Shown here: positions 1,764-50,015 of the stretch, in pieces
How positions within the stretch are numbered: position 1 is the first letter of the stretch
How the letters are laid out: every line of letters starts with the position of its first letter
Virus record (IMG/VR): IMGVR_UViG_3300001580_000013
Coordinates: 23,742 to 87,741 of that record
From: a virus
Lineage: Duplodnaviria; Caudoviricetes
DNA: 64,000 nt
Reading direction: 5' to 3' (one strand)
Position numbers and translations under genes: made by a program
The notes under the pieces: generated by a model
Database searches by the model: none
Told to the model about the DNA's origin: nothing
The model's input: the letters and a program-made list of their open reading frames with translations, nothing else

Positions 1764-1771
1764 TATAAATA
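1764..1771 (+). promoter_or_regulatory. T4-type late promoter box TATAAATA (TnpB copy 1)
   Basis: TATAAATA ends 7 nt before the ATG at 1779; the same placement is seen at the other TnpB copies. Confidence 0.65.
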
Positions 1772-1778
1772 TAAGTAT

Positions 1779-2987
1779 ATGATAAGAACGTCTAAACATA
1801 TTCTCAAATTTGCCAACCAAAATAAATTAGATTTATTAGAACAAATTTATTTTGATTGTAAAAAGCAAATTGAAGTTTATATTGATCAAATTATATCGGC
1901 AAAGCTGGAATTAAGTAAGAGGATGAGCAGCAAATTGTTATCTAATGATTTCACAAAAAACTCCGATTGGAAAAATTTATGTTATCAACAAGCTTCTTCC
2001 ACCATCGGAAGTCAATACAAAAAAGCATCCAATAAAAGATTTAATTCTTACAAAAAGATTTACACCAAACTAAAAGAACAAAATAGATATCAAAAATTTT
2101 TATCAAAGAAATTCTCTGAATTAAATTTAAAACCAATTCAACAAACAAAATATTTCACTAAACCAAAATTGAATAATGTAACTATAATTATTCCAAAAAA
2201 TTTAATTAATTTCACTTCGGATTCTAAATCCTTTGATTCATTTATTAGATTAACTACACCATATAAAAAATCCATTCATAGATATCAAACCATCAATATT
2301 CCAATAAAATATCATTTTCATTCCAATAAATTTAGAACTTCTGGGTGGAAGTTGAAAAATTCTATTTCCTTGAACAAAGTTAATGATAACTTATACTTTG
2401 ATTTATTTTGGGAGAAAGAGCAAGTTACAAAGAAAACAAAAGGAAAGCAAATAGGTTTAGATTGTGGTTATAAGAAGCTACTCATTTCATCAGAAAATAA
2501 AATATATGATTTGGGTATGAAGAAAATCTATAACAAACTATCCAGAAAGAAACAAGGATCAAAGAATTTTAAGCAAGCATTAACTGAGAGAGATAATTTA
2601 ATTAATCGAAGTATAAACAAGATAGAAATGGAAGAAATAAAAACAATTGTAGTTGAAGATTTAAAGAATGTAAAGTTGGGAAGCAAATTTAGTAAAAAAT
2701 TTAATAACAAGCTACAGAGATGGAGTTATCCAAAGGTTTTGGTGAAGCTATCTATGATTTGTGAGGAACAAGGAATAAACTTGGTTAGAGTTGATCCTGC
2801 TTATACAAGTCAAACATGTAGTAAATGTGGATTTAAAGATAAGAAAAACCGTTCTGGTGAACGGTTCTTGTGTTTGAGTTGCGGAATGACTATGGATGCT
2901 GATTATAATGCATCAATTAATATTTTGCATAGAGGCATATACAGTTCCTCTACCGAAAATAATAAAGCTGATTTAAAGGTTAGCTGA
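1779..2987 (+). CDS. tnpB: RNA-guided endonuclease TnpB (IS607-type), copy 1
   Basis: 402 aa; RuvC triad IGLDCG / VVEDL / DADYNAS intact; zinc finger CSKCG...CLSCG; YTSQTC motif. Confidence 0.93.
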   Translation: MIRTSKHILKFANQNKLDLLEQIYFDCKKQIEVYIDQIISAKLELSKRMSSKLLSNDFTKNSDWKNLCYQQASSTIGSQYKKASNKRFNSYKKIYTKLKEQNRYQKFLSKKFSELNLKPIQQTKYFTKPKLNNVTIIIPKNLINFTSDSKSFDSFIRLTTPYKKSIHRYQTINIPIKYHFHSNKFRTSGWKLKNSISLNKVNDNLYFDLFWEKEQVTKKTKGKQIGLDCGYKKLLISSENKIYDLGMKKIYNKLSRKKQGSKNFKQALTERDNLINRSINKIEMEEIKTIVVEDLKNVKLGSKFSKKFNNKLQRWSYPKVLVKLSMICEEQGINLVRVDPAYTSQTCSKCGFKDKKNRSGERFLCLSCGMTMDADYNASINILHRGIYSSSTENNKADLKVS

Positions 2988-3011
2988 CTGTAGAATACAA
3001 ATTAATAGTAA
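2930..3011 (+). ncRNA. predicted TnpB omegaRNA 3-prime scaffold plus guide (copy 1)
   Basis: TAGAGG/CCTCTA hairpin, AGCTGATT-TAAA-GGTTAGCT hairpin, conserved end GACTGT at 2986-2991, then unique flank AGAATACAAATTAATAGTAA. The 5-prime boundary is not determined. Confidence 0.7.
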
Positions 3012-3023
3012 CATTTTATACTC

Positions 3024-3911: not shown

Positions 3912-3971
3912 TTTATTCTCTCCTTTTTTAAATTCAATAGTAATATAAGATATTTTTAACTAAATGTCAAG
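3912..3971 (-). promoter_or_regulatory. early promoter/RBS cassette
   Basis: cTTGACA (3965-3970)-N17-TATATT (3942-3947)-ACTATTGAATTTAAAAAAGGAGAGAATAAA-ATG. Confidence 0.85.
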
Positions 3972-4790: not shown

Positions 4791-4792
4791 TA

Positions 4793-8792: not shown

Positions 8793-11700
8793 CTGTTTTA
8801 TCCGTTCCCCGTGTAGTCATATTCCAGTTTTTACCGTTTGTGTTTTCTGGCTGAATCGAATACCACTGACCACCATCAGTTAATATTTCAAATCCCCAAT
8901 CTCTCTGAAAAATATTTACTATTCTGTCCTCTGTTGTTTTCATTGATAATCCATCGAAATTTTCTGAAATTTCAAATTTTCTCATTTCATTAATATTGAG
9001 CTTCATTTTTGTTACTCCTTTTTGTTTTGTTTTTAATACGATTCTATAACAACTGATATATCGCGTTTATCTCCATACCTGCTAAAAGAAATACTCTTAA
9101 CAGTTTTCATGGATTGTATTTCATATATAGAAATAGCATCCTCAATTTTCCTTCCCGCTAAAAACATAGCAGTTTTTTGAATTTCTTCTAAAGTTAACTC
9201 CTCGACTAATTTTTTCATTTATTTCACTCCTTATATTCTATTTCGTCTATTTCCCAATCATAATCTCTTGCAATTTCTTCGTCTATATTTGTTATACAAT
9301 CTTGATATCCGGCAATATAATCTTCTTTTTCTTGCTCTGTCAATTCTGGATCATTTTGCTCACTCCTTATATCCTTCTTATATTCTTTTATAAGTAATGC
9401 TCTCTTTTTATTTTTCAACCTTTCAACTTCTTTCTCAGCAGATTCCTCTGTTGGATGTGCCGAACAAGGAGTATAAGGACTTTCATAATCCCATTTACAA
9501 GAACAATGAGAAATTAAAAATATTTTTTTCATATTACTTCCAGTACTATCCAGTTTTCAATTTTATTTGACACGAAACTTTTGGTTTCCTTTATACTCAA
9601 ATTTCTAAAATCTTCTTTGACAAACAAGAAAGAAAATAAACTATCAAAACTCATCAAGTATCCGTCAATATATTTCATACTAAACAATATCCTGCCATCT
9701 TTTGATCTTAAAATATGAGTACAATCAAGTTTAGTGCTATAAGATTCTAACTCACTCCATGAACATTTATCTTTAATCATGTTCTCTCCTTATATTTCAA
9801 CATTAGGATATCCAAGAAATGGATTTTCCTGATATTTTTGTTTACACCTCTGATGCTCTTCGTCACTATAAAGAAAAATTTCAGATTTATCAAAAGATAC
9901 ATCTTGCCCGATAGAACAACCAGTAATCAAATTAACGCTCCAAGTATTATGCATAACACCTTCTCCGACAAAATAACCAAGTTCATAGCCAAATCCACTA
10001 TCCCATATTATTTTGTCACCAGCTTTAAATTCTTTCATCTTTCTCTCCTTTTTAATTCTATAGTAATATAAGATATTTTCTATCAAATGTCAAGGATTAT
10101 TTTCCTCTCTGGCTATAGCAATATATGGTGCATAAACTATTCCCTCTTTACCCTTTGTATTTTCAGTACACCAAAACCATAATTCATTGGGTTCAAAATC
10201 TTTCATTATAACATCGTAAAGATTATGATAAGTTTCTAAATCGGTTATGACTTGTATTCCAATCATCGTAGTTTTATTATTATCAAAACTATCAAATAAT
10301 AATTTTTCGTGATATTTAACATTTTCAGAACCAATGGCTTCAGAACAAATTCCGATAGCCTTATTTATTCGCATCATTATTGGTATCATTTTACTTATCT
10401 CCACAATCAGCTAAATCGGCTGGAATACCTTTTTCATTATCAGGCACTTCCACAACCATTCCTCTTATATCTCTATCACTGTATAAAATATCTCCATTTT
10501 TGTCTCTAAATATTTTACCGTGAATAGCCATTTGTGCTCCGATATGAACAGCATCTTGTATTATAGAACAAATTTCATCGTAGCTTCCACAGCAAGTCTG
10601 AAACCATCCTGTGCTTTCATTCCAAGCATCAAAGTTTTCTACTGCCTTTCTTGTGGCATATTCTATCTCAGATTTTTTCATTCCATTCTTCCTCTGCAAT
10701 TCCGAAATATTTTCTTAGATAATCCCTCACACAACCACAAAGAGAATCTTTATTTTCCTCTTTCCATTCTCGCCCTTCATCTGACTCATACCAAAATAGA
10801 AACCCGTCGGAATCTTCAAGTTTTTTCATTTGTTTTAAAGTTTCCTCTTTTTCTCTCTCCGAAAGAAGCAAAGGTATTCTGTCTAAATTAACTACTGCTT
10901 CTCTTTTTTGAGCAAACAAACCATATCCCGCAGGTATTAGATTCTTCTCTTTTATTCTGTAAAATATTTCCTCTGTTTTATTGCTATTCATTTTACACTT
11001 ATCCCAAATATATTAAAATTTTTGTCAAGATGTTCTCCTTTAACCATTCATTCGCTTATTTCTCGTAATAATTGAAAATTTACCCACACTTCTTGTTCCG
11101 AAACTACACCATTATAATTATTTCTATATTTTACTAAACAAATATATAATTCTGTTAAAGTCGAATTTCTTAAATAATCTATAAATTCTAAACTATTCAT
11201 TTTACCCCTTTTTCTTCAAAAAACTGTATAATATCATCTACCATTAACGGATATATAAAGGTATTTTCCAATTTTCTTATTTTCAAATTATGAGCATATC
11301 GAGTTAACCATCCTTGACAATGAGTTAATCCCTCTGCTTTCTTACGCTTCCAATACTTCAATGCCCATTCGAAGTGTGGAATTTTTTTACCATGAATATC
11401 GTCTGGATTTATGCGAACGTCGTTATTGGAAAACTTCCAATAAACCTCTAACTCTTGTCTTGCTCTTACATCCATAAGTTAATCTCCTATTTTAAAAGTA
11501 AATCGTTCACTTTGTCAAAGGTGAATAGTTCTTTTTTAATTTCTTCCATAGCAATTTCTATGGCTTTTTCTTTACCTTTTTCGAAAATCAAATCTATAAA
11601 TCGTTCTATCGGAATCTTCATTTTTACATTCATAACAGTTTCAAGTGGGAACTCATCTGCCAATTCAAAACCATCTACTTTTAATTCTTTACTAATTTCA

Positions 11701-12769: not shown

Positions 12770-13016
12770 TATTTAAGTCCTAATAATTTCAAAATCTTTT
12801 CATAATCCTCATCTCTTTGATATTCAAATATATAATACCAAACAAACTCTCGCGGTTCTATACCATTATAAAAAACTATCTGGTGTCTATCCTCATCTTT
12901 ATCATATTCCATATATACAGTTCCGATAAAATCTAAGTTTATAGGAGAATTTATGTGTGGATTTTCTTCATGGTTAGGATTTGAGCATTTTTCATATTGA
13001 CATTTAACCCACATCT

Positions 13017-13841
13017 TTAAAATCCTATCGGTCTGTTATTGTGTTTGAATCTTACGATGTTATCATCTGTAACCCCACTAAACCAATAACAATCTGTAAA
13101 ATCATATATTTTATTTGTGGTTGGGAAACAATCTCCATCAAGCGTAGTTGAACAAAGCTGTATATTTTTGTTAAATATACCAACAAAATATCTTTTACCT
13201 TTCCACTCCACTTTATCAGAGCAGACTTTCATACCATTTGCTCGCCATTTTTCGTAACCAGACACTCTTCGAGTATCATTTAATATATAGCAATTACCCA
13301 AAGATGATATATGCCCGATGTCAACTTTTAAACCATTTGCATAATAGCATAACACTAAACAATTACTTCTCTCAATTACTTCAAGTTTCAAAACATAATC
13401 TTCGTTCTTCTGCTTCTCAATTTTTTCAATCTCTTTGCCGAGTTCTTCATACTTTCTTTTCAGGTCTGTTAAGTCTTCCATTTTGCTTTCTCCTATTAAT
13501 TTTATTAAATTTTTCTCTTCAACATAAAAATTACCATTTTCAAATTCAACATACCATATATCAGGTTTCTTTGTTACATCTTTTATGGTGCCAATATCAT
13601 ATCTCGTAAGTTTTTTATTTGACAAAGTCACCAAATTAGCAGAAGTATATTGAACTCTATCCCCAACTTTGAATTTTGGTTCTGGTATTAAGAATAAATT
13701 CTCCTCAGATGCCCAAAACACTAAACCATCATCTATACTATAATCTATATAATAACCATTCTGCACACTCAAAGAATATATGATTCCTACTTTACCTAAT
13801 AATTTATTTTTTACTCTATCCCCAACTTTGAATTTTGTCAT
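13017..13841 (-). CDS. protein with tandem KFKVGDRV (SH3/KOW-like) modules
   Basis: Two KFKVGDRV-initiated modules, then a coiled-coil stretch and a further domain. Confidence 0.6.
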   Translation of the reverse strand: MTKFKVGDRVKNKLLGKVGIIYSLSVQNGYYIDYSIDDGLVFWASEENLFLIPEPKFKVGDRVQYTSANLVTLSNKKLTRYDIGTIKDVTKKPDIWYVEFENGNFYVEEKNLIKLIGESKMEDLTDLKRKYEELGKEIEKIEKQKNEDYVLKLEVIERSNCLVLCYYANGLKVDIGHISSLGNCYILNDTRRVSGYEKWRANGMKVCSDKVEWKGKRYFVGIFNKNIQLCSTTLDGDCFPTTNKIYDFTDCYWFSGVTDDNIVRFKHNNRPIGF

Positions 13842-21781: not shown

Positions 21782-22846
21782 CTAATATATTTTAAATTCA
21801 AAATTGCGGCATGATAATATGCAAGCTTTTTCTTTTAGTAAATTTTTTTCTAAATCTCGTTTCATAGTCCATGTAGATTTAACTTCTACTATTTTATTTT
21901 CTTTTGGAATATAGAAATCTGGAAAATATTTATGTTTCTTCCCATCTTTAGTATAATACCATATCTTTCCAATTATATCTTGAGTTGGATGAACAATTAT
22001 ATCTTCCTCTGATCCCTTATTATAGAAATATTCATCGAGATATATTCCTTCGTATCCTTGAATTTTAACTACCTTTCCAGATGGCATGATATAATCTTTC
22101 CATTTAAACGCTGATCTGGAACACTTATCAAATATTCCTTGATCTTGCATAGGGTTTTCTACCCCGTACTTCTCGATACATGTATTTTTAATTTTTTCTT
22201 TCATTTCATCATTTTGAAGGTGACACCGTGTACCGAAATTATCCATACATGTTTTTTTTGATTTTTCCTTATTTACTTCCGCTTGTAGGGGATTATCTGT
22301 TCCATAATGTTCTCTACAGGTATTTGTTTTCTTTTCTTTTATTTCTGCACTTTGAGAAACATTATCAACACCATATTTTTCGCGAATAGTCTGTTGTTGT
22401 TTTTTATATATATCTTTATTTTGTAAAGGATTTTCAAAACCGTATCTCTTTAAATTTGTTTGTTTAACTTTTTCTCGCATTTCGTTGGATTGAGAAGAAA
22501 ATTCTACACCATATTTATCCATACAAGTTTTTTTACTTTTTTCTCGCATTTCTTTGCTTTGCATAATATTTTCTACACCATATTTTTGCAAATTTGTTTC
22601 TTGCCGTGCTTTTACCTGACAGTCAACACTACCGCACGATTGACTATACCCATGTGCGATATCAATAAACATTTTATCGTTTGAACAATATTTGCATTTT
22701 TTATCTGATACATTTTGTAAAATATAAGTGTCATAATATTGCTGTTTCGTTATTTCCGGATGAGAATGAACAATATGATATGAAAAAGAAAAATTATTTT
22801 TACATTCTTTTCCACATATTTTACATATTATTTTATCTTGAACCAT
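21782..22846 (-). CDS. putative homing endonuclease: Zn-finger + 23-aa KYGV repeats + PD-(D/E)xK nuclease
   Basis: CKICG...H...H zinc finger, seven KYGVEN..Q repeats, C-terminal YFPDFYIPKENKIVEVKS. Confidence 0.75.
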   Translation of the reverse strand: MVQDKIICKICGKECKNNFSFSYHIVHSHPEITKQQYYDTYILQNVSDKKCKYCSNDKMFIDIAHGYSQSCGSVDCQVKARQETNLQKYGVENIMQSKEMREKSKKTCMDKYGVEFSSQSNEMREKVKQTNLKRYGFENPLQNKDIYKKQQQTIREKYGVDNVSQSAEIKEKKTNTCREHYGTDNPLQAEVNKEKSKKTCMDNFGTRCHLQNDEMKEKIKNTCIEKYGVENPMQDQGIFDKCSRSAFKWKDYIMPSGKVVKIQGYEGIYLDEYFYNKGSEEDIIVHPTQDIIGKIWYYTKDGKKHKYFPDFYIPKENKIVEVKSTWTMKRDLEKNLLKEKACILSCRNFEFKIY

Positions 22847-26173: not shown

Positions 26174-26443
26174 CTATTTTATTTCATCTACTTTTGCATT
26201 CTCTTCTGCCATTGGAAGTTTTTTAAACGCATTGTACGTGAGTGTGAGCATCCACGCAGCCATGAGTCCATCCGGAACTGTAAAATATTCTTTTATTATA
26301 TCAGCATATTCTACTCCACCGATCCACAAAAATATAAACTTCCCCACCCAAAAATAAATTAAAATGACAAGAAGAATCCAAAATGAAATTCTTCCCATAG
26401 AAATGTCTTTATTATTTTCTGAAATCAAACTCTTATAATTCAT
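26174..26443 (-). CDS. holin-like two-TM protein
   Basis: ISMGRISFWILLVILIYFW and GLMAAWMLTLTY helices with a charged C-terminus; ATG at 26443, 4 nt past the TnpB copy 2 end. Confidence 0.55.
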   Translation of the reverse strand: MNYKSLISENNKDISMGRISFWILLVILIYFWVGKFIFLWIGGVEYADIIKEYFTVPDGLMAAWMLTLTYNAFKKLPMAEENAKVDEIK

Positions 26444-26506
26444 AGTCACAGTCAGCTAACCTTTGAATTAGCTTTATTTTCAGTAGAGGAACTATAAATG
26501 CCTCTA
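26428..26506 (-). ncRNA. predicted TnpB omegaRNA 3-prime scaffold plus guide (copy 2)
   Basis: Same two hairpins and GACTGT end (26448-26453); flank GACTATGAATTATAAGAGTT. Confidence 0.7.
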
Positions 26507-27660: not shown

Positions 27661-27679
27661 ATTTTTATTTATAAAATTT

Positions 27680-28673: not shown

Positions 28674-29773
28674 TGTATCTCCTTTATTTTAATTCCGGGT
28701 TCCCAACCATCATTTAAATATTTCTCAAGTTCTGATTCATGTATTTGTGTTCTTTTTTGTAATTTATCGTTATGAACCCATTTAAACCCTTTGGTGGTTC
28801 CCACTAATTCTCCAGTTTTTAATCTTGGGTCATTTTCATCAACTTGTATATATTTTCTTGATATAGTATCAAACATATTCTTTTTCTTTGCCATTACACC
28901 AACTAATTCACCACTTATCCATCTTGGGTCATTTTTATCTACTTGAAATATATTTCCATCTTTGTCTTTTGATTGAATTTTTCCTTTACAGATGTGTACC
29001 AGTTCTCCATTAGATATTCTCGGGTCATCTTTATCTACTTGAATGGTGTTGCCTTCTTTATCTTTAACAACCGCCTTGCCTTTAAAACAACTAACCAACT
29101 CACCACTCAACCATCTCTCGTCTGTTTTATCAATTTGAAAGGTGTTGCCATCTTTATCCTTGACAGTTACTTTTCCCGTGGTCATGTGAACCAATTCCCC
29201 ACTCGTATATCTGTTATCAGTTGTAGAAATTGAAAGAAATTTACCATTCTCATCTTTTACAATAACTTTTTCTTTCGTTATAGATTCTAATTCTCCATCG
29301 GCTATTCTTGGGTCGTCTTTATCAACTTGAAAAGTATTTCCGTCTTTATCTCTGACAGCACCCATTCCTTTAAAACAACTAACCAACTCACCACTCAAAT
29401 ATCGTTCATCGTGTATTGAAACTTGTGAAGTGTTACCATCTTTGTCTTTTACACTAACCATTCCAATATTCTTATATCCAATATCTCCATTCCCACCAAG
29501 AGTCATATTATAAGTGTCATCTCTCCTAAGTAAATCTCTATTAATGAGTTCTTTTTCTTTTAATATCATTTCTTCTTGTGTATCAAACACAAATAATATT
29601 TCTTTTTTAAAATTTTCTTTTCCATATTTTTTAATTGCTCGTTTAATACCGATACCACTACCCAAATATTTATCATCGACATTCTTTGTTTTGTGCATAC
29701 CGATATAAAATTTACCATTAATAATATTAGTTATTTTATATATCGTGTAAAATATTTTCTTTTCTTCGTTCAT
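28670..29773 (-). CDS. GIY-YIG homing endonuclease (Seg-like) with seven 32-aa C-terminal repeats
   Basis: YTIYKITNIINGKFYIGMHKT...YLGSG...YN motif; repeats V.VKDKDGN..QV...D.R..SGELV; TATAAATA at 29779-29786. Confidence 0.88.
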   Translation of the reverse strand: MNEEKKIFYTIYKITNIINGKFYIGMHKTKNVDDKYLGSGIGIKRAIKKYGKENFKKEILFVFDTQEEMILKEKELINRDLLRRDDTYNMTLGGNGDIGYKNIGMVSVKDKDGNTSQVSIHDERYLSGELVSCFKGMGAVRDKDGNTFQVDKDDPRIADGELESITKEKVIVKDENGKFLSISTTDNRYTSGELVHMTTGKVTVKDKDGNTFQIDKTDERWLSGELVSCFKGKAVVKDKEGNTIQVDKDDPRISNGELVHICKGKIQSKDKDGNIFQVDKNDPRWISGELVGVMAKKKNMFDTISRKYIQVDENDPRLKTGELVGTTKGFKWVHNDKLQKRTQIHESELEKYLNDGWEPGIKIKEIQ

Positions 29774-31488: not shown

Positions 31489-34400
31489 CTAATTGATAAT
31501 AAAATCAATACTATTACTAACCGAATTAAATTTCATAACAGCATTTGTACCCATTCTAAATTCTGTTGCTTCTATATCACCAGTTGTTTCAATATCAGAA
31601 GTTCCTGCATCTATCGTTCCTGCTACTGCATTTATTATTTTATCTCCACTTTCTAATGTAATATCGCCAACTACAGTTAAATCAGAAGTAGTCCGTACTA
31701 TACCAGCACCTTTAGGAACTAATTCAATATCATAATCTGTTCCAATTCCTTTGGCTTTCCACTGATTTTTCAGAGTATCTTGGTCTTCTTCAAAATGTTC
31801 AAATAACCTATCCAATGTAATATTCACAGCAGGATAATCTAACTGAGAATTGTAAGTTCCACCACCGTGTATTAGAACATTTTGAGTTGTTAATGGTGAA
31901 CCACTTCTTTTTGCTTTTACTCTTATTGCTAATTTATCTCCAGCAACAAAAGTATGTTGAACATCCGCAGTCACAACGAAAGTATAAGCCTCAATATTAG
32001 TTGCAAGTGGAGCTACTATTTCTGCTGATGAATAAGTATGTAATATTGTTCCTACACTATCCAAAACTAATAAATCAACTTGGAATGTTACTCCTCTATT
32101 TGCAGTTGTTTTTTGCAAGTAAAGATAAGATTCAAATCTATCACCAATTTCAATAGAAGTCCTGTAATTCATAGCATCTTCAAATTCAATCCAAGTTTCT
32201 AACTCTGTTTGAGTATCCTGTGAAACTGAATAAGTATTAGAAAATGATGCTTGTGCTGTCAAACTTAATAATTTATTTATTCCACTATCTGTATTTGTTA
32301 AATATGCAATTCTGTCTTGGTAAACACTTAGAGCGTTTTTTAATCTTTGCTCTGTTATATATTCAGCATTTCTATATGAAGTGGCTGTTGAAACTCTTTC
32401 GGCTTCCCACATTTTAGTTACGCCATCACCTTCAACTTGGAAAGCGGGTCTTAAATCATTATGGGCAGAATAAACAGCCAATCTCGTATTAGTATGACGA
32501 CAAATTGAACTCAACTCAGCAGGAGTAGAATAAGCGGTAACAGGAATTAATCTTAGCCAATAACCTTCTGTGCCATCAATAGTCTTTTTAGCCCAATCCA
32601 CAAATTCTGTATTATCCCATATTATATCACCATTTGCTGTAAGGTTTGTTGTTGAATCTATAGCATTTGGAACATCAACCCAAGCATCAGAACTATTCAA
32701 ATATTGAACTTTAAAAGTACCACCAACGCCATATTGTGATAATATAACATTGACAGCACTCCATTTTGAAGCATTTCCAAGATAAAGATAATGGTCGGTA
32801 TCTCCTAATATTTCAAAACTATCAGCTATACTACATTGAGTTGTTGCTGATTTGTAAGTATAATCTATAAAAGTTGAACCAGCATCCTCAGAAACCATGA
32901 CTCTGTGTATCATAGGAGGTTTGATATCCATTGTACTTGGTGGGTCTTGTGAGAATCCTCTTACAGACCAAGTATCCGTTAAACTATGACCAGTTGTTGC
33001 TCCAAAAGTTATATAAACACCTTCTCTTAATTCATAAGGAGTAATTTGACAAGGAATAAGAGTTCCACCAGAAGTCCAAGTTGAACCTGTTCCGCCAGCA
33101 TTGATTAAATATTCCCATCTGAAAGTATCGGGTGTTCCTACACTATCAATATAAATTCTGAAAGCTGTTGTTGTATTTCCTTCAAAATTTCCACTTGCAG
33201 TTACATCATTTAATCCTGTTCCATTATAAGCTACATAAGGACTTACTAAACTTATTGGTCTATTAAATCCAAATCTACCATTTCTACTTATTACTAAAGG
33301 ATTTTCTTGGCTATCTAAATTGTAAAAATACATAAATCGAGCATCTTCGTTTCTCCAAGCACCTTGAATAGCCCATTTATCTACACCATTGTCCTTGAAC
33401 ACAATTTGTTTATCAGTATCAACTGCACCATCAAGGAATAAACCATTTTCTTGTAAATTATCACCACCCAAATCAGTGTCATCTGTCGCGTTTATAGTTA
33501 CATCACCTATGAAATTATGAGTTGTTTTTACTATAACACCAGCTTTATCCACATAATAACCATAATCGAGTGAATTTATTGTTGGATTCTTTCCACTTAA
33601 AGTAGCAGATATAACATTAACACTATTCATTGATATTTTACTATTTGTTGTTTCTAAATCCGCAAATAAAGAAATAGAACCATTTGAATTGAATTGAATA
33701 TTAATATCTTTGTCAGTACTACTAATAAAAAGTTGGTTGTCTTGGAACGGGTCTAAGTATATTTCGTTATACATAGTTCCGCTACCATAAAGATACGCAT
33801 CCCACAGGCTTATACCACCAACAGATTCAATATATTTTGGTGTTGGTAATGCACCTTCTTCTCCAATAAATATATTTCCTTTTAAATGAGCAGAATAATA
33901 GTCATCAAATCCCAATATACTATCATTTACAATAAGACCGTTTGAAGTTATTTTTTTATCTGTTTCAACGTTTCCATCTCTATCAATGCTAACTAAGCTA
34001 TCATATCCTTTTATAGCAAAAGTATATTCAGTAGAAACCTCATAAGCACTATAACCCGCAGGAATCGCTTGGTCAACTAATGGAGTTTCTAAAATATCCC
34101 AACCCTCTGACAAATGTTTATGAATGTATAATCTATGTTCGTCATATATACCTGTAAAATATTCGAGATAAGACTCACAATTATCATTCGGATTTTCTTG
34201 GTTTATTGCATCTTTGGTAACCACTCTTAATTTTTCTATCTGTGAATATTGATAACCTTCCATAGAAGTTGAGTGTAAAATATGGATAGATACTCCAGAT
34301 TTATTTCCTATATCAGAAGTAACCGTAAATATTAAACTTCCATTCTGTCTGCAATAACCGTCTGGAGGAGCTGGAATAGTATTCAGCCAATCACCACCAT

Positions 34401-37400
34401 ACCGTATTTCAAACATTGCGTGAGAAGTGCTTGAACTATTAGGACAAGTTGCTATACGAACCCATTTACCAATAGAACTAACGCCCATTAAATTACATTG
34501 AAATCCTTCATCAACTTTATTTCCTCTAATATTTTCCTTTGCTATTATAGAACTTTCAACCTCTAAATCCCAAATTTGTGTAAGATAATCTGAATTACAT
34601 CTCCACATATAGTATCCGTCTTCAAACTCATTGTATCGTTCTAATTTAAACCAATTTCTGCCTTCATCATCTTTATCTTCTCCGAGCAACCAAAGAGGAA
34701 CAGAACCATCACCAACATCACCAAATTTTATTATGTTATCTGCTGTTGGGTGGTCTATATTTGCTGATTGGGCTTTAACATTCCCCTCCCCATTAACATT
34801 AAATACAGTTTCACCCGCATAGTTATTAACTTGGAATACATCAAGCGCATCTCCACCAACCTGCCCATTCTGAAATGTTACACCATCTCTTGTAGCATCA
34901 GTTACAATTTCACCAACAGGAGAATTGTTATATGCTTGTTGTAAAGTAGTTGTACCGCCAATTCCGCCAATACTCTGATTAACTTCACCAAATCTATTTA
35001 GTTCTATAAATTTTGCTTGTAATGGGTTGGATAAGTCTGTGGCATTTTTTGAAACTACTATAACACCTCTGAATAATCCGTTCTCTGCTATATTTTGTTC
35101 TACCGCAAACACTTCTGTATTAACTGCGGCAAGAGCATCTGCCATATTTTTATATACTGCTTGACCATATTGAATACGAATTAAATTAGATGAAAATAAT
35201 GCTACTCTCATTATACTAAATTCGTATGGAGCAGTAATAGCAGTTTTTACGCCGTTGCGGTCATAGTAACCAACATCTAAGGTATTTGTGTCTAATCCCT
35301 CTGGTGTTAATAGAGTTATACTTCTTGTTCTGTGTCTCAAAGTGGCTGGAGCACTCAAACTATCCAAAAATTTTAAATTTGGATTATCTGAACCATTTAG
35401 TTCATGGAAATTTACACCTTTTTTGAAAATCTCACCAGAAGATTTGTTTAGATACTTGTTGACTCCATTCGCAGATATAATATTGCCATTAACATTAAAA
35501 ACTCTTATAGCATCAAGTAAATCGTTATATTGACCTGCCACGTTCTTCGCCACATCTGGCATACTATTGAAAGCATTTATTGTTGTCATATTACTATGAA
35601 TTACTGCACCAATTAATATGTAGTTTCTTCTATCTGTTGGCGTAAAAGGACTCGAACTTTGAACAATCTGAGTTAATCCGATTGGTTGTGAATAATCCAA
35701 AGCAATATATGTAACTAATTGAGTTGTTAAATTTGTAAGCGGTATCTCATCTAATTCTGCAAATTGAGTAACACCATCTTCTAAGGAATAATATGAACCT
35801 GCTGTAATTTTAAATTTTGTAGTTGGAGCAAGAGTAGCAATATCAAGTTTCATTCCATTCTTAACACCATTAGTAACAAGTGTACGGTCAGCATCATCTA
35901 ATCTGTTTATAGTGTTTTCATCAATAAAATCAAAAGAAGTATTATTGAATGCTGAAGTAACTATTGTAGTGTTATTACCTTTTCTGACTATTATTCTTCC
36001 AGCTAACATTCCTAAACTTTGAAATGGTGGGGGTAATTCGGAAACATCTGGAGCAGGAATTTCCATAACATTAGTAAATTTATATGGAGTATTACCTAAT
36101 AATATACAAGCGTGTTTTGTTCCATCTGTTAAAACTGCTCTATAAACCCAGTTAATAGCATAATCGTTCCAAGTAGGTAATTCGGCTAAACCAGTAGCTA
36201 CATCATTATATTGAGAGTTGTTATATTTAGTTGCGGCTTCTCTGTACCATTCAGTACCGATCTTATACCATATATAACAAGTATCTACCGAACTATCAAA
36301 GGAGTCAACAAAATATCTATGAACCCTACCTCTCCAAATATAACCTTCTGAAAGTATTATTTTTCTATCGGCGTCATTTGAAGCAGATAATTCCATTCCA
36401 CTTTCTGCTGTCCATCTTTCAGTCCTAACCAAACCGTCAGCAATTTTATTTGCTAATCCTTGAGATGCTAAATCCCAATTAACTTCAAAAAATGAAATTT
36501 CTCCATCCATATCCATTCTGTAAATTGTATAGATTGGGATTATTTTTAATTGGTCTATAAGATGCGGAGCTTCTCTTGTCTGATATACTTCTACAGATTC
36601 TGTATTGCCATCAAATACTATGTAATTGATACTATTTGCGACTAAAGTTAAAGTTTGTTCTGCTATTTCGTATCTTAATAGAGGAAGCGCACCATTAATA
36701 TCTGAATAAACATTATAAGTTCCGGCTGAAAGTATCATGTTTCCTGTTTTGACACCGCCAACTTCTTCTGCTGTTATGGAAGGTAAAGTTCCCGTTACTC
36801 CGGCCGTATGATTTATATTTCGTATATTATAATAATCGAGTTGTCCTGCTGGCGCATTTCCATGTTCATAAGTGTCATAAGCAGAGTCTAAATCTATATA
36901 TTTAGTTTCTATATCATTCGCTGTTAATTTGTTAGTTCCCAAATCTACATCTTTATTAGCACCAGTGTAAGGAATAAAACCAGATAAATCTTGATTTTGA
37001 GATTTTTGCCAAACTGTTCCATTATACATTACCCAATCGCCAACTTTAAACTCTATCAATTCTCCGTCAAATGTTTGAGAACCCTCTACGGAAGTTACAT
37101 AAAAATCTCCAGTGTTTCCCGTTCCATCTATAAGAGTTGGTGTATTTGTTAAAGCATTCCAAGTTCCTTTATATTCTATAACACTATCTGGTAATTGTGA
37201 TGGGTCTATTTTACCATTTATTAATCCCGGATATCCATTAGTTTGATTTTTTTCTGAAAGAAGTTGATAGTTCCCCACAACACTTCCAGTATAATCTATA
37301 ATTTTGTTGGATGTCCATAGATCGGTATTTGTAGTACCGGTATCGTTTATTTTGTATATGAATTTAAAGTTTGTTTGATCAAAACTTAATATATTTCCAT

Positions 37401-38868
37401 TCACATCATAATTAGTTGAATCAACATCAAACAATTTCGTCAGATAATAATTACTCATGTTTGATCCGCCTCCACCTCCGCCTATTATAGATACATAGGG
37501 TTGCTGATTGTTGCTTTCTCTTTTAGTATCTTCTACCGATGATTTTACTTTTATTGGAGTTCCCCATTCGCCATCAGACTGTTTAAAGAACAACCAACCA
37601 TTCTGTACCATATGATCAGGGGATTTTCCCATGAACTGCTCTTTGTTCTCTTCAAAATACTGCTTAATGTATTCTGGTGTAACTATATTCTGTTCAACTT
37701 CTTTTAATTTTTTTGATATATCGGTTATTTTTCCATTTAATTCTTTGGATATATTTTTTATTTCTGTTTTTAAATACTGCTCTACATCTTCGTTTATGAT
37801 TTTTATTTCAGAATTTATAACCTTAATATCTTCTTTTAATTTTGCTATTTCTAAATTTTTTGGATCAACCTTCTCAACAATTATTTTATCTAATTTTTTG
37901 TTGAATTTTGTTTCCATGAGTTGCAATATCAATTCTTGTATCTGCGTAGAATTTAATGAAGCTTCCTCTGTTAATGACAGTTTATCTATAATATTGGATG
38001 AAATTTTGGAAAAGCTTTCTTTTATTTCTTTTATGTTCTTATCGGTTTTTTTTAGAGCTTTGGTGTAATTATCCATGAATTTATCAAAAACTTCTGAATC
38101 AATCTTTTCTTGTAATTTCGTTGTGATATCTGAATTTAATTTATCCGAACTTTCTTTTATGCTGTCAATGTAGTTCTGTGTTAACTTGGCATAAACATTT
38201 TCCTGATCTTCTTTTAATTTTATAGAAGTCGCGGTTAATTCCGATTTTAATTTTTCTGTTGTTTCAAATATTTCTTTTGATATTTTTTGTGTTACTTGAG
38301 TTACTTTTTCGAGTTCTTTGTTAAATGTTTCAGAAATATCAACTACATCATTGTTGGTCTGTATTATTTGTTCTGACAGATTATCATTTATTTTTTTCAG
38401 AGATTCATTTAATGCTTTGTTGTATTCAATATTTAATTGCGAAACATAATCAAGCATTTCCTGATTTTTTTCTGTCAATTGTTCTGTTATGGATGAAAAC
38501 TTTTTACCAGAATCTATTCCGAGCAGATCAATGATATTTAAAAGATGTTTCTCCTGTTCTTGTAAAGCATCTCTATATTCTTCGTTAACTTTGAATATTT
38601 TTTTATCAAATGATCTTTTAACTTTTTCATCATTAACAATTTTTGTATCATACTTTTCATTTAATGAATTTATTTTTTCTATTAAAGATGAAATTTTTGA
38701 AAATACATCATAATTTATTTTATTGTATCTGATATTATCTACAGATTTTAATTTATTAATTTCTTCGGTTATAGAAGTTTTTAATTCAAACAATTCTTTT
38801 CTTGCTGTGAATATTTCTTCTTTAATAAATTCGGTATTTTCGTCTTTTTTAATTATTTCAATGTTCAT
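31489..38868 (-). CDS. giant virion protein (2459 aa): coiled coil fused to tail-fibre-like modules
   Basis: About 440-aa coiled coil, then GKSPDH..WLFF...DGEWG, a GGGGGS linker, YKGTWNA.TNTPTL...GD.Y...GDW and YTGA..DVDLG modules; directly downstream of the portal. Confidence 0.65.
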   Translation of the reverse strand: MNIEIIKKDENTEFIKEEIFTARKELFELKTSITEEINKLKSVDNIRYNKINYDVFSKISSLIEKINSLNEKYDTKIVNDEKVKRSFDKKIFKVNEEYRDALQEQEKHLLNIIDLLGIDSGKKFSSITEQLTEKNQEMLDYVSQLNIEYNKALNESLKKINDNLSEQIIQTNNDVVDISETFNKELEKVTQVTQKISKEIFETTEKLKSELTATSIKLKEDQENVYAKLTQNYIDSIKESSDKLNSDITTKLQEKIDSEVFDKFMDNYTKALKKTDKNIKEIKESFSKISSNIIDKLSLTEEASLNSTQIQELILQLMETKFNKKLDKIIVEKVDPKNLEIAKLKEDIKVINSEIKIINEDVEQYLKTEIKNISKELNGKITDISKKLKEVEQNIVTPEYIKQYFEENKEQFMGKSPDHMVQNGWLFFKQSDGEWGTPIKVKSSVEDTKRESNNQQPYVSIIGGGGGGSNMSNYYLTKLFDVDSTNYDVNGNILSFDQTNFKFIYKINDTGTTNTDLWTSNKIIDYTGSVVGNYQLLSEKNQTNGYPGLINGKIDPSQLPDSVIEYKGTWNALTNTPTLIDGTGNTGDFYVTSVEGSQTFDGELIEFKVGDWVMYNGTVWQKSQNQDLSGFIPYTGANKDVDLGTNKLTANDIETKYIDLDSAYDTYEHGNAPAGQLDYYNIRNINHTAGVTGTLPSITAEEVGGVKTGNMILSAGTYNVYSDINGALPLLRYEIAEQTLTLVANSINYIVFDGNTESVEVYQTREAPHLIDQLKIIPIYTIYRMDMDGEISFFEVNWDLASQGLANKIADGLVRTERWTAESGMELSASNDADRKIILSEGYIWRGRVHRYFVDSFDSSVDTCYIWYKIGTEWYREAATKYNNSQYNDVATGLAELPTWNDYAINWVYRAVLTDGTKHACILLGNTPYKFTNVMEIPAPDVSELPPPFQSLGMLAGRIIVRKGNNTTIVTSAFNNTSFDFIDENTINRLDDADRTLVTNGVKNGMKLDIATLAPTTKFKITAGSYYSLEDGVTQFAELDEIPLTNLTTQLVTYIALDYSQPIGLTQIVQSSSPFTPTDRRNYILIGAVIHSNMTTINAFNSMPDVAKNVAGQYNDLLDAIRVFNVNGNIISANGVNKYLNKSSGEIFKKGVNFHELNGSDNPNLKFLDSLSAPATLRHRTRSITLLTPEGLDTNTLDVGYYDRNGVKTAITAPYEFSIMRVALFSSNLIRIQYGQAVYKNMADALAAVNTEVFAVEQNIAENGLFRGVIVVSKNATDLSNPLQAKFIELNRFGEVNQSIGGIGGTTTLQQAYNNSPVGEIVTDATRDGVTFQNGQVGGDALDVFQVNNYAGETVFNVNGEGNVKAQSANIDHPTADNIIKFGDVGDGSVPLWLLGEDKDDEGRNWFKLERYNEFEDGYYMWRCNSDYLTQIWDLEVESSIIAKENIRGNKVDEGFQCNLMGVSSIGKWVRIATCPNSSSTSHAMFEIRYGGDWLNTIPAPPDGYCRQNGSLIFTVTSDIGNKSGVSIHILHSTSMEGYQYSQIEKLRVVTKDAINQENPNDNCESYLEYFTGIYDEHRLYIHKHLSEGWDILETPLVDQAIPAGYSAYEVSTEYTFAIKGYDSLVSIDRDGNVETDKKITSNGLIVNDSILGFDDYYSAHLKGNIFIGEEGALPTPKYIESVGGISLWDAYLYGSGTMYNEIYLDPFQDNQLFISSTDKDINIQFNSNGSISLFADLETTNSKISMNSVNVISATLSGKNPTINSLDYGYYVDKAGVIVKTTHNFIGDVTINATDDTDLGGDNLQENGLFLDGAVDTDKQIVFKDNGVDKWAIQGAWRNEDARFMYFYNLDSQENPLVISRNGRFGFNRPISLVSPYVAYNGTGLNDVTASGNFEGNTTTAFRIYIDSVGTPDTFRWEYLINAGGTGSTWTSGGTLIPCQITPYELREGVYITFGATTGHSLTDTWSVRGFSQDPPSTMDIKPPMIHRVMVSEDAGSTFIDYTYKSATTQCSIADSFEILGDTDHYLYLGNASKWSAVNVILSQYGVGGTFKVQYLNSSDAWVDVPNAIDSTTNLTANGDIIWDNTEFVDWAKKTIDGTEGYWLRLIPVTAYSTPAELSSICRHTNTRLAVYSAHNDLRPAFQVEGDGVTKMWEAERVSTATSYRNAEYITEQRLKNALSVYQDRIAYLTNTDSGINKLLSLTAQASFSNTYSVSQDTQTELETWIEFEDAMNYRTSIEIGDRFESYLYLQKTTANRGVTFQVDLLVLDSVGTILHTYSSAEIVAPLATNIEAYTFVVTADVQHTFVAGDKLAIRVKAKRSGSPLTTQNVLIHGGGTYNSQLDYPAVNITLDRLFEHFEEDQDTLKNQWKAKGIGTDYDIELVPKGAGIVRTTSDLTVVGDITLESGDKIINAVAGTIDAGTSDIETTGDIEATEFRMGTNAVMKFNSVSNSIDFIIN

Positions 38869-41692: not shown

Positions 41693-41774
41693 TTGCTTCG
41701 TGTTCTGTTTCCACAGTCAGCTAACCTTTAAATTAGCTTTATTATTATCGGTAGAGGAACTATATATGCATCTA
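41693..41774 (-). ncRNA. predicted TnpB omegaRNA 3-prime scaffold plus guide (copy 3)
   Basis: Same scaffold (one mismatch in hairpin 1), GACTGT end at 41713-41718; flank GGAAACAGAACACGAAGCAA. Confidence 0.7.
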
Positions 41775-42937: not shown

Positions 42938-42968
42938 ATCTTTATTTATAAAAATTCTTTCTTTTTAC

Positions 42969-42997
42969 TTGACATTTAAAAATAATTTGTGTATATT
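42969..42997 (+). promoter_or_regulatory. sigma70-type promoter, divergent from TnpB copy 3
   Basis: TTGACA (42969-42974)-N17-TATATT (42992-42997). Confidence 0.8.
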
Positions 42998-43027
42998 CCA
43001 TCGTTGATTAAAATGGAGAAAATTAAA

Positions 43028-43546
43028 ATGGACGAAAAAGAAAAAAGAATGAAAGAATTTACAAACAAGATCAACAATCACAGAAAACACATAAAAAGAA
43101 AATATGAAAATTTAACAACAAATAAAGAAGAAATTTACTATATAATTGATGACATTTGCGATGAGGAAATTTGGTATATTGCCTTAGATATAATTGATAA
43201 AACACCTGAACAAATAAAAGAAAGAGTGAGAGTAACTAAAAAGTTTATTAAAAACTCAATTAAAGAAAAATTAGAAAATAAAAAAATAACATTAACTGAA
43301 TGTATATCCAAGATTAAAAGTTTTAAATATTACACAAAAAGAAAATTAAAATATTTGGATACGGAAACTAAAAAGCATTTTTACGATGTGATTGATGAAT
43401 TTTGCGAAGAAGATATCAACTTAGCAAAAAAAGAAAAAGATGAGCATGGGGTATGGAAAAGATTGCAGGGAGCCAAACATGGAATAAAAGAGTGGGTTGA
43501 ACAAAATTTGCGATACAAGAAATATTTGGAAGATTTAAAAGATTAA
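43028..43546 (+). CDS. hypothetical helical protein (one of the few plus-strand genes)
   Basis: GGAGA RBS before the ATG at 43028 and its own promoter; internal similarity YYIIDDICDEEI / YDVIDEFCEEDI. Confidence 0.65.
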   Translation: MDEKEKRMKEFTNKINNHRKHIKRKYENLTTNKEEIYYIIDDICDEEIWYIALDIIDKTPEQIKERVRVTKKFIKNSIKEKLENKKITLTECISKIKSFKYYTKRKLKYLDTETKKHFYDVIDEFCEEDINLAKKEKDEHGVWKRLQGAKHGIKEWVEQNLRYKKYLEDLKD

Positions 43547-48208: not shown

Positions 48209-48579
48209 AGCTATTGTCCCTTTTTTAATTTTTATTTCTATATTTATTTATAAAGTAAACGGGATAAATTCAAAATAAAAATACTTTAAAAATGAAAAAT
48301 ACTTAAAAAATTTTCCACTCTTTAAGTATTTGGGATGTTATTTTGTATTTAAATTTTGTTTATTTCGGAAGTTACAATTATTAAAAATTAAAAATAAAAA
48401 CCATTTCTCGCTAAGTTTAAACTGTTTTTACTCTTACTATCTCTATACCAATTTTTGATATTATCATAATATAGTTCTATCATTTCTTGTAATTAAATGA
48501 AAAAATAATGAAAATAATTATTTGACTCCCCCTAATTTTTTTATAAATAAGGATATAAAATTAAATTTGGTTAGAAAAA

Positions 48580-48786
48580 ATGAAACTAAGTGAATATGCA
48601 AAGAAACATAATGTGACCTACAGAACAGCCTACAATCATTTCATTAAAGGTTGGATTCCTACAGCCTATCAGCTTGAATCTGGAACTATCATGATCCCAG
48701 ATGATAACAGCACACAAGAACTAAAGAACACAGTGAACGAACTTAAAAAACTTATTCAAGAACTAAAAGATACAAAAAATAAATGA
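48580..48786 (+). CDS. tnpA: truncated IS607 TnpA: MerR-like HTH + short coiled coil, no serine-recombinase domain
   Basis: MKLSEYAKKHNVTYRTAYNHF..G.IP.AYQL.SGTI.I matches the IS607 TnpA N-terminus; the YARVS catalytic motif is absent. Confidence 0.8.
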   Translation: MKLSEYAKKHNVTYRTAYNHFIKGWIPTAYQLESGTIMIPDDNSTQELKNTVNELKKLIQELKDTKNK

Positions 48787-49991
48787 TAAGAAGAAGTAAA
48801 CACATATTAAAATTCGCTAACAAAAATAAATTGAATATGCTCGAACAAATTTATTCGGATTGTAAAAAACAAATTGAAGTTTACATTGATCAAATTATAA
48901 AAGGGAAATTAGAATTAAAAAAGATGATGAGTTCGGCTTTATTATCGAATGAATTTATAGAAAACTCCGATTGGAAAAATTTGTGTTATCAATATGCTTC
49001 TTCCACCATCAGAAGTCAATACAAAAAAGCATCAACTAAAAGATTTAATTCTTACAAAAAGATTTATGCTAAACTGAAAGAACAAAATAGATATAATAAA
49101 TTCACAACAAAACGATTTAAAGAATTAAAACTCAAACCAATTCAGCAAACTAAATATTTCGTCAAACCAAAATTGAATAATGTTACGATAATATTAACTG
49201 TACATTTATTTAATTTTACTTCGGATTCTAAAAATTTTGATTCATTTGTGAGATTAACTACACCATATAAAAAATCGGCGGGAAGATATCAAACAATTAA
49301 TCTTCCAATAAAGTATCATTCTCATTCAAATAAATTCAGAACTTCTGGTTGGAAGTTGAAGAACTCTATTTCACTTAACAAACTAAACGGAAACTTCTAT
49401 TTTGATTTATTCTGGGAGAAGGAAGAAGTTAGTAAAAAGTTGGAAGGAAAACAAATAGGATTAGATTGTGGATACAAGAAGCTACTTATTTCATCAGAGA
49501 ACAAGATTTATGATGATGGACTTGAAAAAATCTATGAGAAGTTATCAAGAAAGAAACAAGGATCAAAAAACTTCAAACAAACATTAACCGAAAGAGATAA
49601 TTTAATTAATCGAAGTATAAACAAGATAGAAACAGAAAGTATTTCAACAATAGTAGTAGAAGATTTAAAGAATGTAAAATCAAAAAGCAAATTTTCAAAG
49701 AAATTTAATAACAAGCTACAGAGATGGAGTTATCCAAAGGTTTTGAATAAACTATCTATGATTTGTGAAGAGCAAGGAATTAATTTAGTTAAAGTTGATC
49801 CCGCCTATACAAGTCAAACATGTAGTAAATGTGGACACAAACATAAAGATAATAGGAAGTTAGAAAAGTTTTTATGTTTAAGTTGTGGAATGACTATGGA
49901 TGCAGATTTCAATGCATCTATAAACATTTTACATAGAGGCATTTATAGTTCCTCTACCGAGAATAATAAAGCTAATTTAAAGGTTAGCTGA
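48783..49991 (+). CDS. tnpB: RNA-guided endonuclease TnpB, copy 4
   Basis: 402 aa; RuvC D/E/D and zinc finger intact. Confidence 0.93.
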   Translation: MIRRSKHILKFANKNKLNMLEQIYSDCKKQIEVYIDQIIKGKLELKKMMSSALLSNEFIENSDWKNLCYQYASSTIRSQYKKASTKRFNSYKKIYAKLKEQNRYNKFTTKRFKELKLKPIQQTKYFVKPKLNNVTIILTVHLFNFTSDSKNFDSFVRLTTPYKKSAGRYQTINLPIKYHSHSNKFRTSGWKLKNSISLNKLNGNFYFDLFWEKEEVSKKLEGKQIGLDCGYKKLLISSENKIYDDGLEKIYEKLSRKKQGSKNFKQTLTERDNLINRSINKIETESISTIVVEDLKNVKSKSKFSKKFNNKLQRWSYPKVLNKLSMICEEQGINLVKVDPAYTSQTCSKCGHKHKDNRKLEKFLCLSCGMTMDADFNASINILHRGIYSSSTENNKANLKVS

Positions 49992-50015
49992 CTGTCCCAA
50001 TTATATGTCGCTGTT
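49934..50015 (+). ncRNA. predicted TnpB omegaRNA 3-prime scaffold plus guide (copy 4)
   Basis: TAGAGG/CCTCTA and AGCTAATT-TAAA-GGTTAGCT hairpins, GACTGT at 49990-49995; flank CCCAATTATATGTCGCTGTT. Confidence 0.7.

Follow-up and report, generated by a model that had tools for sequence, protein, structure and literature searches.

Compact IS607-derived TnpB cassettes as candidate RNA-guided homing units in a T4-like phage

Cas12 evolved from TnpB, whose known natural task is to protect its own transposon against loss following excision. The protein, its guide RNA (omegaRNA), the IS607 family and TnpB-driven homing are already known, solitary TnpB genes are common, and IS607 elements usually end in GG next to a GG target, with neither inverted repeats nor target duplication. 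Here we describe four tnpB genes in a 64-kb stretch of phage DNA (the window), the right-hand part of the 87.7-kb IMG/VR viral contig IMGVR_UViG_3300001580_000013 (positions 23,742 to 87,741), together with three further copies from the same sample. With slightly better than even confidence, we lean towards reading these compact TnpB/omegaRNA units as IS607-derived, TnpA-independent cassettes that would act as RNA-guided homing elements of a T4-like phage.

The described systems to which these cassettes can be compared each share some of their properties. Elements with an IS607-family TnpB, such as Helicobacter pylori IS607 and the Clostridium botulinum IStron (bioRxiv 10.1101/2023.11.20.567912), resemble them in that relatives of the cassettes carry a TnpA composed of a helix-turn-helix (HTH) domain and a serine recombinase directly upstream of tnpB, in the apparent absence of inverted repeats and of target duplication beyond a shared dinucleotide, and in a nexus hairpin that, as predicted here, pairs with the 3′ end of the scaffold, with the guide taken from the right flank. 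Unlike IS607, the cassettes have no TnpA or only its HTH as a protein of 68–70 amino acids, their left end consists of no more than a phage late promoter next to the ATG, their predicted scaffold occupies the last codons plus 4 nt and ends in ACTGT or ACTAT rather than GG, and seven diverged copies reside in one lytic-type T4-like phage. ISDra2 TnpB (IS200/IS605 family; PDB 8exa and 8h1j) has the same combination of RuvC and zinc-finger nuclease motifs, with weak PDB matches (E ~7e-7), and ISDra2 and IS1341-type elements likewise derive a guide RNA from the right end and often have TnpB without TnpA; in contrast, the partner of TnpB in relatives of the cassettes is a serine recombinase rather than a Y1 enzyme, the ends lack hairpins for a Y1 enzyme, and the best-scoring solved chains for the cassette proteins are Cas12f (E 3e-16).

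The free-standing homing endonuclease genes of T4 (seg and mob, with marker exclusion by SegF) offer a different parallel, as single nuclease genes with their own late promoter, situated between conserved phage genes and present as several paralogues per genome. Gene maps and late promoters reveal this arrangement for the cassettes too, and the same phage encodes LAGLIDADG endonucleases and a GIY-YIG endonuclease, the latter with the promoter-to-ATG layout of tnpB. The cassettes differ in that an RNA copied from the flank, instead of the protein, would recognize the target, and in that the insert itself, where present, would distinguish self from non-self, a distinction that rests on substitutions in a neighbouring gene in the T4 systems. 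Lastly, TnpA-independent spread of IS605 elements among plasmid copies by TnpB, termed ‘non-restorative homing’, has been reported, according to the discussion of bioRxiv 10.1101/2025.02.20.638934 in PMC13565253; the table of that review gives the process as supported for plasmids and as a theoretical row for phages (PMC13565253). The proposed principle is the one considered here, with TnpB cutting the orthologous empty site on another replicon and repair copying the element; the difference is that it was shown for plasmids, and the phage cassettes have no transposase. In the literature searched we found no experimental report of TnpB homing between phages.

Seven intact TnpB genes and their predicted guide RNAs

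All four tnpB open reading frames (ORFs) of the window are intact and match Pfam PF07282 (Cas12f1-like TNB; E 1e-20 to 1e-22), with 80–85% amino acid identity to copy 1. This agrees with a preliminary description of the DNA, which had recorded four paralogous genes at these positions, diverged yet undisrupted, with 13 differences between copies 1 and 4 in the first 60 residues (the number that we count on the alignment) and with a complete RuvC D/E/D triad and zinc finger in each. Indeed, D228 (GLDCG), E293 (VVEDL), D375 (DADxNA) and C347, C350, C365 and C368 are invariant in a 28-sequence family alignment, and the glutamate and the last aspartate line up with catalytic residues of solved Cas12f/TnpB chains. 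The loss of RuvC catalytic residues that characterizes nuclease-dead TldR-type proteins is thus not seen.

Searching IMG/VR with a 16-mer from the right end recovered a second contig (G001; 75 kb, CheckV 40% complete) that holds two extra copies, gA and gB, besides which there were six matches, all due to chance. Copy 1, gA and gB lie together on one 128-kb ENA contig with 100% identity to the contig of the window (G000; CheckV 47% complete) over the 21 kb compared; therefore, G000 and G001 are parts of one phage, and together they provide the 163 kb that was scanned. The same ENA assembly has a 71-kb contig on which a seventh copy, 79% identical, follows a sheath gene; the shared sample and the tree position of this copy, the two grounds for the assignment, suggest that it belongs to the same phage. 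This uncultured phage comes from a hydrocarbon metagenome, has a GC content of 30% over G000 and is identified as a large T4-like phage by genes of the window for a portal, a gp2-like DNA end protector, a head-closure protein, gp46/47-like SbcCD, a primase, an RNase H-like exonuclease and a split B-family polymerase; GIY-YIG and LAGLIDADG homing endonuclease genes are also present there.

In a maximum-likelihood tree the seven copies form a clade with 100/100 support that is an unresolved star save for one pair. Pairwise synonymous divergence (dS) is 0.68–1.29 and the ratio of non-synonymous to synonymous divergence (dN/dS) is 0.10–0.18, a range indicating purifying selection; the preliminary description had proposed this calculation and had named recent identical copies as evidence against its interpretation, and no young copy exists among the seven (dS at least 0.7). 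These values suggest a single ancient burst, after which every copy was long retained by purifying selection.

The right end of the cassette was predicted to have a second function beyond coding. As the preliminary description had noticed, the four copies end alike and are followed by unrelated sequence: the terminus ...GGTTAGCTGA|CTGT is identical in all of them, and likeness ceases exactly 4 nt past the stop codon (...AAAGGTTAGCTGA|CTGT). When 34 family members are compared, the right end is seen to start with a hairpin in the codons for ...RG(I/V)YS..., to continue with another hairpin whose sequence and length vary widely, and to finish with (A/G)ACT(A/G)T. This second, terminal hairpin, whose stems take many different sequences, is predicted for most of 32 members, closes 1–2 nt before ACTRT and scores below shuffled sequences (mean z −2.4; 23/32 below −1.5). 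The loop of the first hairpin matches the terminal pentamer (ATAGT with ACTAT, ACAGT with ACTGT, ATAAT with ATTAT), the loop-to-end pairing being Watson–Crick in 27 of 34 sequences and wobble-compatible in the rest; none of 5000 permutations was as good, and switches of loop and end are seen even inside closely related groups. In a 33-sequence alignment the nexus stem and pseudoknot are 98.6% paired, compared with 88.7% in shuffles and 42–65% in slid controls, with compensatory changes at 6 of 11 pairs and a covariation score (0.342 versus 0.155) that none of 500 shuffles reached.

By these comparisons, the right end keeps a conserved predicted omegaRNA scaffold whose nexus hairpin and pseudoknot covary, and a layout with the nexus paired to the scaffold 3′ end has been called universal for IS605 and IS607 omegaRNAs (bioRxiv 10.1101/2023.11.20.567912). 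In the phage the predicted scaffold spans ~62 nt, all coding save 4 nt. No Rfam family, RAGATH-18 included, matched at gathering thresholds, and no orphan scaffold without tnpB was found. Predicted guides, with a length assumed by analogy with known systems, each match their own flank only and have no second target in the phage’s own DNA.

Two details of the flanks may be recorded. That of copy 2 begins, directly after the element’s GACTGT, with GACTAT (26442–26447, − strand), the terminus variant of relatives that are 66–69% identical, which could be chance or a trace of an earlier element end. At the seventh copy, a repeat of the flank's first 16 nt, mismatched at one position, lies 120 nt downstream (10971–10986 and 11091–11106 of L021; L-numbers here and below label homologue loci or contigs).

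Left ends, late promoters and IS607 ancestry

At the left end, sequence common to the four copies extends only ~20–25 nt and has the form AAAATTTTATAAATAAAGAT-ATG. This is the late-promoter consensus of the phage and therefore leaves no room for TnpA sites. The preliminary description had placed each tnpB gene downstream of a TATAAATA box, with few bases between box and ATG in the three copies without tnpA; the box is present at all four, and the distance is 7, 5 and 5 nt in copies 1, 2 and 3, which have no ribosome-binding site. Over the whole window TATAAATA is not enriched (19 versus 15 expected). Its placement, with 28 of 55 boxes on G000 and G001 lying 0–40 nt upstream of a same-strand ORF start (3.7 expected), is non-random, and the phage therefore uses T4-type late promoters. 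The wider consensus reads TTT-TATAAATA-A..., after which most late genes have a leader of ~20 nt with a Shine–Dalgarno sequence. A promoter-N5-ATG layout is shared by the GIY-YIG endonuclease gene (28670–29773, − strand) and a few other genes, and the spacing in all of these, tnpB included, suggests leaderless late mRNAs. Boxes 5–6 nt before an ATG that lacks a ribosome-binding site also occur at 24629–25150 (− strand) of the window and at 12335 and 46494 of G001.

The early promoter of the phage is very uniform (TTGACATTT-N-TATATT; 11 in the window, 0.4 expected), and copies 1, 3 and gA each stand back to back with one. The ~75 nt common upstream of these three copies were considered as a left end and rejected: the early/late promoter module recurs without tnpB, so the shared sequence is a phage promoter, not a transposon end. 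One such module, at 67120–67210 of G001, reads TATAAATAAAGATAT, as at copy 3 and gA, and continues into unrelated sequence without tnpB; its late promoter is directed at the end of a convergent gene, and the module could be a site that was never occupied or has been vacated. The only + strand ORF of the region around copy 3 (42989–43546; ~175–185 amino acids, no Pfam match) is driven by the window’s only + strand early promoter; this ORF stands back to back with copy 3 and may have come in with the cassette. Candidates for the target-adjacent motif (TAM) are the 5 nt before the ATG (AAGAT, AAAAT, AGTAT, AATAT) or the sequence before the promoter T-tract, neither being preferable without an empty allele.

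The fourth cassette retains a vestige of TnpA, as the preliminary description had claimed in calling it an HTH-only IS607 TnpA and the other three copies tnpA-less. Homology to the TnpA N-terminus bears this out: the 68-residue ORF, whose stop codon overlaps the ATG of copy 4 tnpB, matches the N-terminal HTH of full-length TnpA from related phage elements (phmmer 6e-13 to 3e-8). A 70-residue HTH ORF accompanies gB as well; the two share an HTH-plus-short-helix build and have diverged with a dN of 0.38 and saturated dS. Library homologues of the copy 4 ORF are themselves mostly 50–110 amino acids long. The small protein of these two cassettes is probably a regulator or an end-binding factor kept from TnpA.

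Full-length counterparts exist in relatives: in L042, L045, L051/L052 and L064, a protein of 190–196 amino acids directly upstream of tnpB combines the N-terminal HTH with a Resolvase domain, as in IS607-type TnpA. The serine-recombinase TnpA upstream of tnpB that identifies an IS607 element is thus found in L042, L045, L051 and L064 and not in the phage described here, in whose 163 kb there was no match to PF00239 (Resolvase) or PF01797 (Y1); the preliminary description had named a TnpA elsewhere in the genome as an observation that would count against it. Among the best 120 of 1643 TnpA homologues, none lies on a contig whose length matches those of this phage. Nor do the cassettes have the Y1 TnpA and hairpin ends of IS200/IS605 elements, given the lack of a PF01797 match and a left end too short for a hairpin. 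At the ends no terminal inverted repeat or target-site duplication was seen, the terminus is ACTGT or ACTAT rather than GG, and in a relative only AT is shared by both junctions. Because the upstream TnpA is confined to relatives, the cassettes are, as judged by homology, of IS607 ancestry without being complete IS607 elements.

The nearest copies outside the phage (66–69% identical) are solitary, lie mostly antisense between phage genes and have the same promoter-N5-ATG start together with a hairpin-plus-GACTAT end. A profile search of IMG/VR gave 71 loci at 35–55% identity, with two or three diverged copies on several large phage contigs, and two copies in another phage have an independent MerR-like HTH ORF of 55–56 amino acids upstream. 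The family as a whole reads as IS607-derived: the recombinase domain was lost repeatedly, and small DNA-binding proteins were kept. In L035 (3847–4008) and L038–L040, ~150 nt upstream of tnpB, in the position taken by TnpA elsewhere in the family, is a small ORF that by eye has a ribbon-helix-helix (Arc/CopG-like) look, recalling the Arc repressor recently described for IS605 elements in bioRxiv 10.64898/2026.09.24.754181. In L030, L031, L036, L080 and L085 (3300028601_000019, 3300042267_000149 and relatives), tnpB has an in-frame TGA at the conserved DAD-x-NA position and reads to full length under table 4, which suggests that TGA is recoded as a sense codon in these phages.

Proposed homing between co-infecting phages and its alternatives

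The absence of TnpA from the 163 kb, a left end too short for TnpA sites and the lack of young copies together suggest that the cassettes are functional TnpB/omegaRNA units independent of a transposase in cis. So do selection on the protein as well as on the base pairs of the RNA, and late-promoter wiring of the kind seen in the phage’s protein-only homing endonucleases. Late in infection, the promoter abutting the ATG would transcribe tnpB, as a leaderless mRNA judging by the spacing. The 3′ end of the transcript would fold into the scaffold modelled in silico, with nexus hairpin, terminal hairpin and a pseudoknot to the 3′ end ACTGT, and would run on into ~16–20 nt of flanking phage DNA, which after presumed processing would serve as the guide. 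The phage’s own genome would be spared, as the guide match there is preceded by the scaffold end rather than by a TAM. In a co-infecting relative without the cassette, the left flank, with its TAM, would adjoin the guide match, and this allele would be cut and repaired from the cassette-bearing genome. Either the cassette and its flanks would be copied (homing, with marker exclusion) or the competitor would die.

Without excision the known restorative role of TnpB gives no benefit, and keeping the transposon therefore cannot explain seven intact copies. Our analysis suggests that selection is explained most economically if the nuclease cuts alleles without the cassette in co-infecting relatives, for homing or exclusion; it would then be an RNA-programmed counterpart of the classical T4 homing endonucleases. 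The preliminary description had likewise proposed that the copies had left transposition behind and act as homing or exclusion nucleases. The second part of that proposal gains from the lack of TnpA in 163 kb, the minimal left end, the want of recent copies, purifying selection, the conserved scaffold and the flank-specific guides; the first is too strong for the past, because a star-like clade with a minimal left end reached new loci after TnpA had been lost in cis.

Comparison of family loci adds examples of presence and absence. The element of L085 has a TnpB that is 48% identical and resides in a phage in which TGA appears to encode a residue. A related 133-kb phage (G002) lacks this element, with 26 nt at the homologous site in place of 1355 nt. 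The boundaries of the element fall at the predicted left end and at ACTAT, with only the dinucleotide AT common to both junctions; in its right flank the first ~25 nt, the predicted position of the guide, cannot be aligned to G002, and the next 1 kb is 81% identical. A copy in L023 (67% identical) is found between two genes that lie 4 nt apart in the distant relative L107. One of these genes takes its stop codon from the last bases of the element, and the other is served by an additional late promoter that faces outward. The locus L030 was tried as an empty-site test and set aside, having no clean empty site and non-homologous segments. Judged from these loci, members of the family are gained and lost among phage genomes at the predicted ends, though in some cases not cleanly.

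Some results weigh against homing as we propose it. A cassette-free allele was found for none of the seven loci, with no close relative of the phage in IMG/VR, the JGI metagenomes or a 5.8-billion protein set. The element of L080, in the same phage as that of L085, replaces 430 nt kept in the cassette-free phage (from the end of one gene into the start of a macro-domain gene), so that neither a clean homing event nor a clean transposition is seen there. Synonymous change in the last 115 codons, which contain the scaffold, is only mildly reduced (a weak dip in sliding synonymous diversity). The TnpA scan took in 163 kb, and ~50 kb of the 71-kb contig and the unassembled remainder lie outside it. 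A star-like clade with a common minimal left end means colonization of at least seven new loci, for which homing alone is an insufficient explanation.

The need of such a burst for a way of reaching new sites, together with the incompleteness of the genome, makes a serious rival of the idea that these are conventional non-autonomous insertion sequences of the IS607 type that, like IS1341, have tnpB alone and are moved in trans by a TnpA in the unseen part of the genome, in a co-infecting phage or in the host, with TnpB acting only restoratively after excision. We give this an appreciable but clearly minor probability. Full TnpA-plus-TnpB elements of the same family do reside on other phage contigs, the TnpA family is abundant (1643 matches), and the right end, with its conserved terminal hairpin and, in a relative, a 2-nt core shared with the left junction, looks as the ends of serine-recombinase elements do. 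Homing independent of TnpA is preferred since neither recombinase domain was found in 163 kb and none of the best 120 TnpA homologues lies on a contig of matching length, since the left end is a mere promoter without subterminal repeats such as those in the 138-nt left end of the L080 group, and since all copies are old; moreover, restorative homing without excision would provide no selective reason for a dN/dS of 0.1–0.18 in all seven.

That same long-term purifying selection on seven copies in one genome would also suit domesticated phage weapons, which destroy co-infecting relatives with copying as a by-product, or another guide-dependent role in phage DNA metabolism; late-promoter wiring like that of the phage’s own genes and the conserved accessory HTH protein fit such a role, and the unalignable ~25 nt beside the insertion point in the cassette-free relative could be target escape. 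We consider this improbable. The diverged segment may be a variable gene end, the intact catalytic residues exclude a TldR-like repressor role, and, with guides that are the flanks themselves, one cut would give homing or killing according to the divergence of the partner, so that weapon and homing element are inseparable in silico. Inert relics of an old IS607 invasion, devoid of present function, would account for the missing transposase and the lack of recent copies in cassettes whose activity is predicted from sequence. We find this barely credible for seven ORFs that have stayed intact after a dS of ~1 at low dN/dS, with invariant catalytic residues and scaffold pairs kept by compensatory changes.

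If TnpA-independent homing holds, it would be a second natural job for TnpB, would show how RNA-guided nucleases outlive the loss of transposition, and would provide very compact nuclease/guide units, ~1.24 kb long, whose scaffold lies within coding sequence. The literature anticipates the idea, and this case adds breadth (seven copies, IS607 ancestry, an HTH remnant) rather than a new principle. What is distinctive here is the presence of seven diverged copies in one lytic-type phage, a left end cut down to a late promoter, a scaffold almost wholly inside coding sequence and a conserved HTH-only descendant of TnpA. We further postulate, as a rather unlikely extension, that the cassette spreads without a transposase to new loci as well as between alleles, a founder whose left end had already shrunk to a promoter having colonized at least seven sites, and others in related phages. 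Such spread could use RNA-guided or off-target breaks repaired via short homologies, for example at repeated promoter modules. Large T4-like phages would then host a self-propagating family of programmable homing endonucleases that carry their own late promoter, some copies possibly with an outward promoter that spares the neighbouring gene.

Feature coordinates and the surrounding phage genome

Positions of the four cassettes and of the promoters beside them are collected in Table 1.

Table 1. Features of the four tnpB cassettes, in window coordinates.
Feature	Position	Strand	Basis and context
Late-promoter box TATAAATA, cassette 1	1764..1771	+	7 nt before ATG, no Shine–Dalgarno; motif enriched by position
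tnpB copy 1, 402 aa	1779..2987	+	ORF, Pfam, alignment; antisense to surrounding early genes
Predicted omegaRNA scaffold, copy 1	2930..2991	+	Last codons + 4 nt; nexus hairpin ~2930–2952, terminal hairpin AGCTGA/TTAGCT, 3′ end GACTGT
Predicted guide, copy 1	2992..3011	+	Flank; 3′ untranslated region of convergent pentapeptide-repeat gene
Early (sigma-70-type) promoter beside cassette 1	1717..1745	-	Back to back, facing away; context, outside cassette
Late-promoter box, cassette 2	27666..27673	-	5 nt before ATG
tnpB copy 2, 402 aa	26452..27660	-	ORF, Pfam; same direction as phage late genes
Predicted omegaRNA scaffold, copy 2	26448..26506	-	Folding and covariation
Predicted guide, copy 2	26428..26447	-	Covers ATG and first codons of next gene; begins GACTAT
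Late-promoter box, cassette 3	42943..42950	-	5 nt before ATG
tnpB copy 3, 406 aa	41717..42937	-	ORF, Pfam; between gp2-like DNA end protector gene and + strand ORF
Predicted omegaRNA scaffold, copy 3	41713..41774	-	Folding and covariation
Predicted guide, copy 3	41693..41712	-	Leader upstream of gp2-like gene
Early-type promoter beside cassette 3	42969..42997	+	Back to back; window’s only + strand one
Late-promoter box, cassette 4	48542..48549	+	30 nt before 68-aa HTH ORF
68-aa HTH protein, cassette 4	48580..48786	+	Homologous to N-terminal DNA-binding domain of IS607-type TnpA; no resolvase domain
tnpB copy 4, 402 aa	48783..49991	+	ORF, Pfam; antisense to neighbours
Predicted omegaRNA scaffold, copy 4	49934..49995	+	Folding and covariation
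Predicted guide, copy 4	49996..50015	+	Intergenic

Five sequencing runs contain sequence of the window, including a run of a second study that matches 26% of the words. A megablast search of GenBank phages with its first 6 kb gave no match. Close relatives, sought with the portal and a 535-residue neighbour in IMG/VR, and with that neighbour also in the JGI metagenomes and the 5.8-billion protein set, were not found; these searches returned only the phage itself, one 45% relative and one distant locus of 4.8 kb.

Further genes of the phage merit brief mention. A 273-residue ORF of G001 (~12900–13700, + strand) has RuvC-like GIDMN / AIEDL / D..ARRG motifs and is weakly similar to TnpB residues 272–345 (E 4.5e-6), but the zinc-finger cysteines are missing; its product may be a miniature TnpB-like protein from another lineage. 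LAGLIDADG-type homing endonuclease paralogues (55% amino acid and 72–83% nucleotide identity) are scattered over 21782–22846 (− strand) of the window, 68270–69970 and 74849–75065 of G001 and the start of L021, and in two assemblies the assembly ends at such paralogues. The ORF at 57951–59165 of the window (− strand) matches only the C-terminal half of phage B-family DNA polymerases (PHROG 262, positions 493–846), and the polymerase gene is regarded as split because its N-terminal half is not adjacent. Finally, a giant ORF of 2459 amino acids occupies 31489–38868 (− strand) in the late region, between the portal gene and copy 2.

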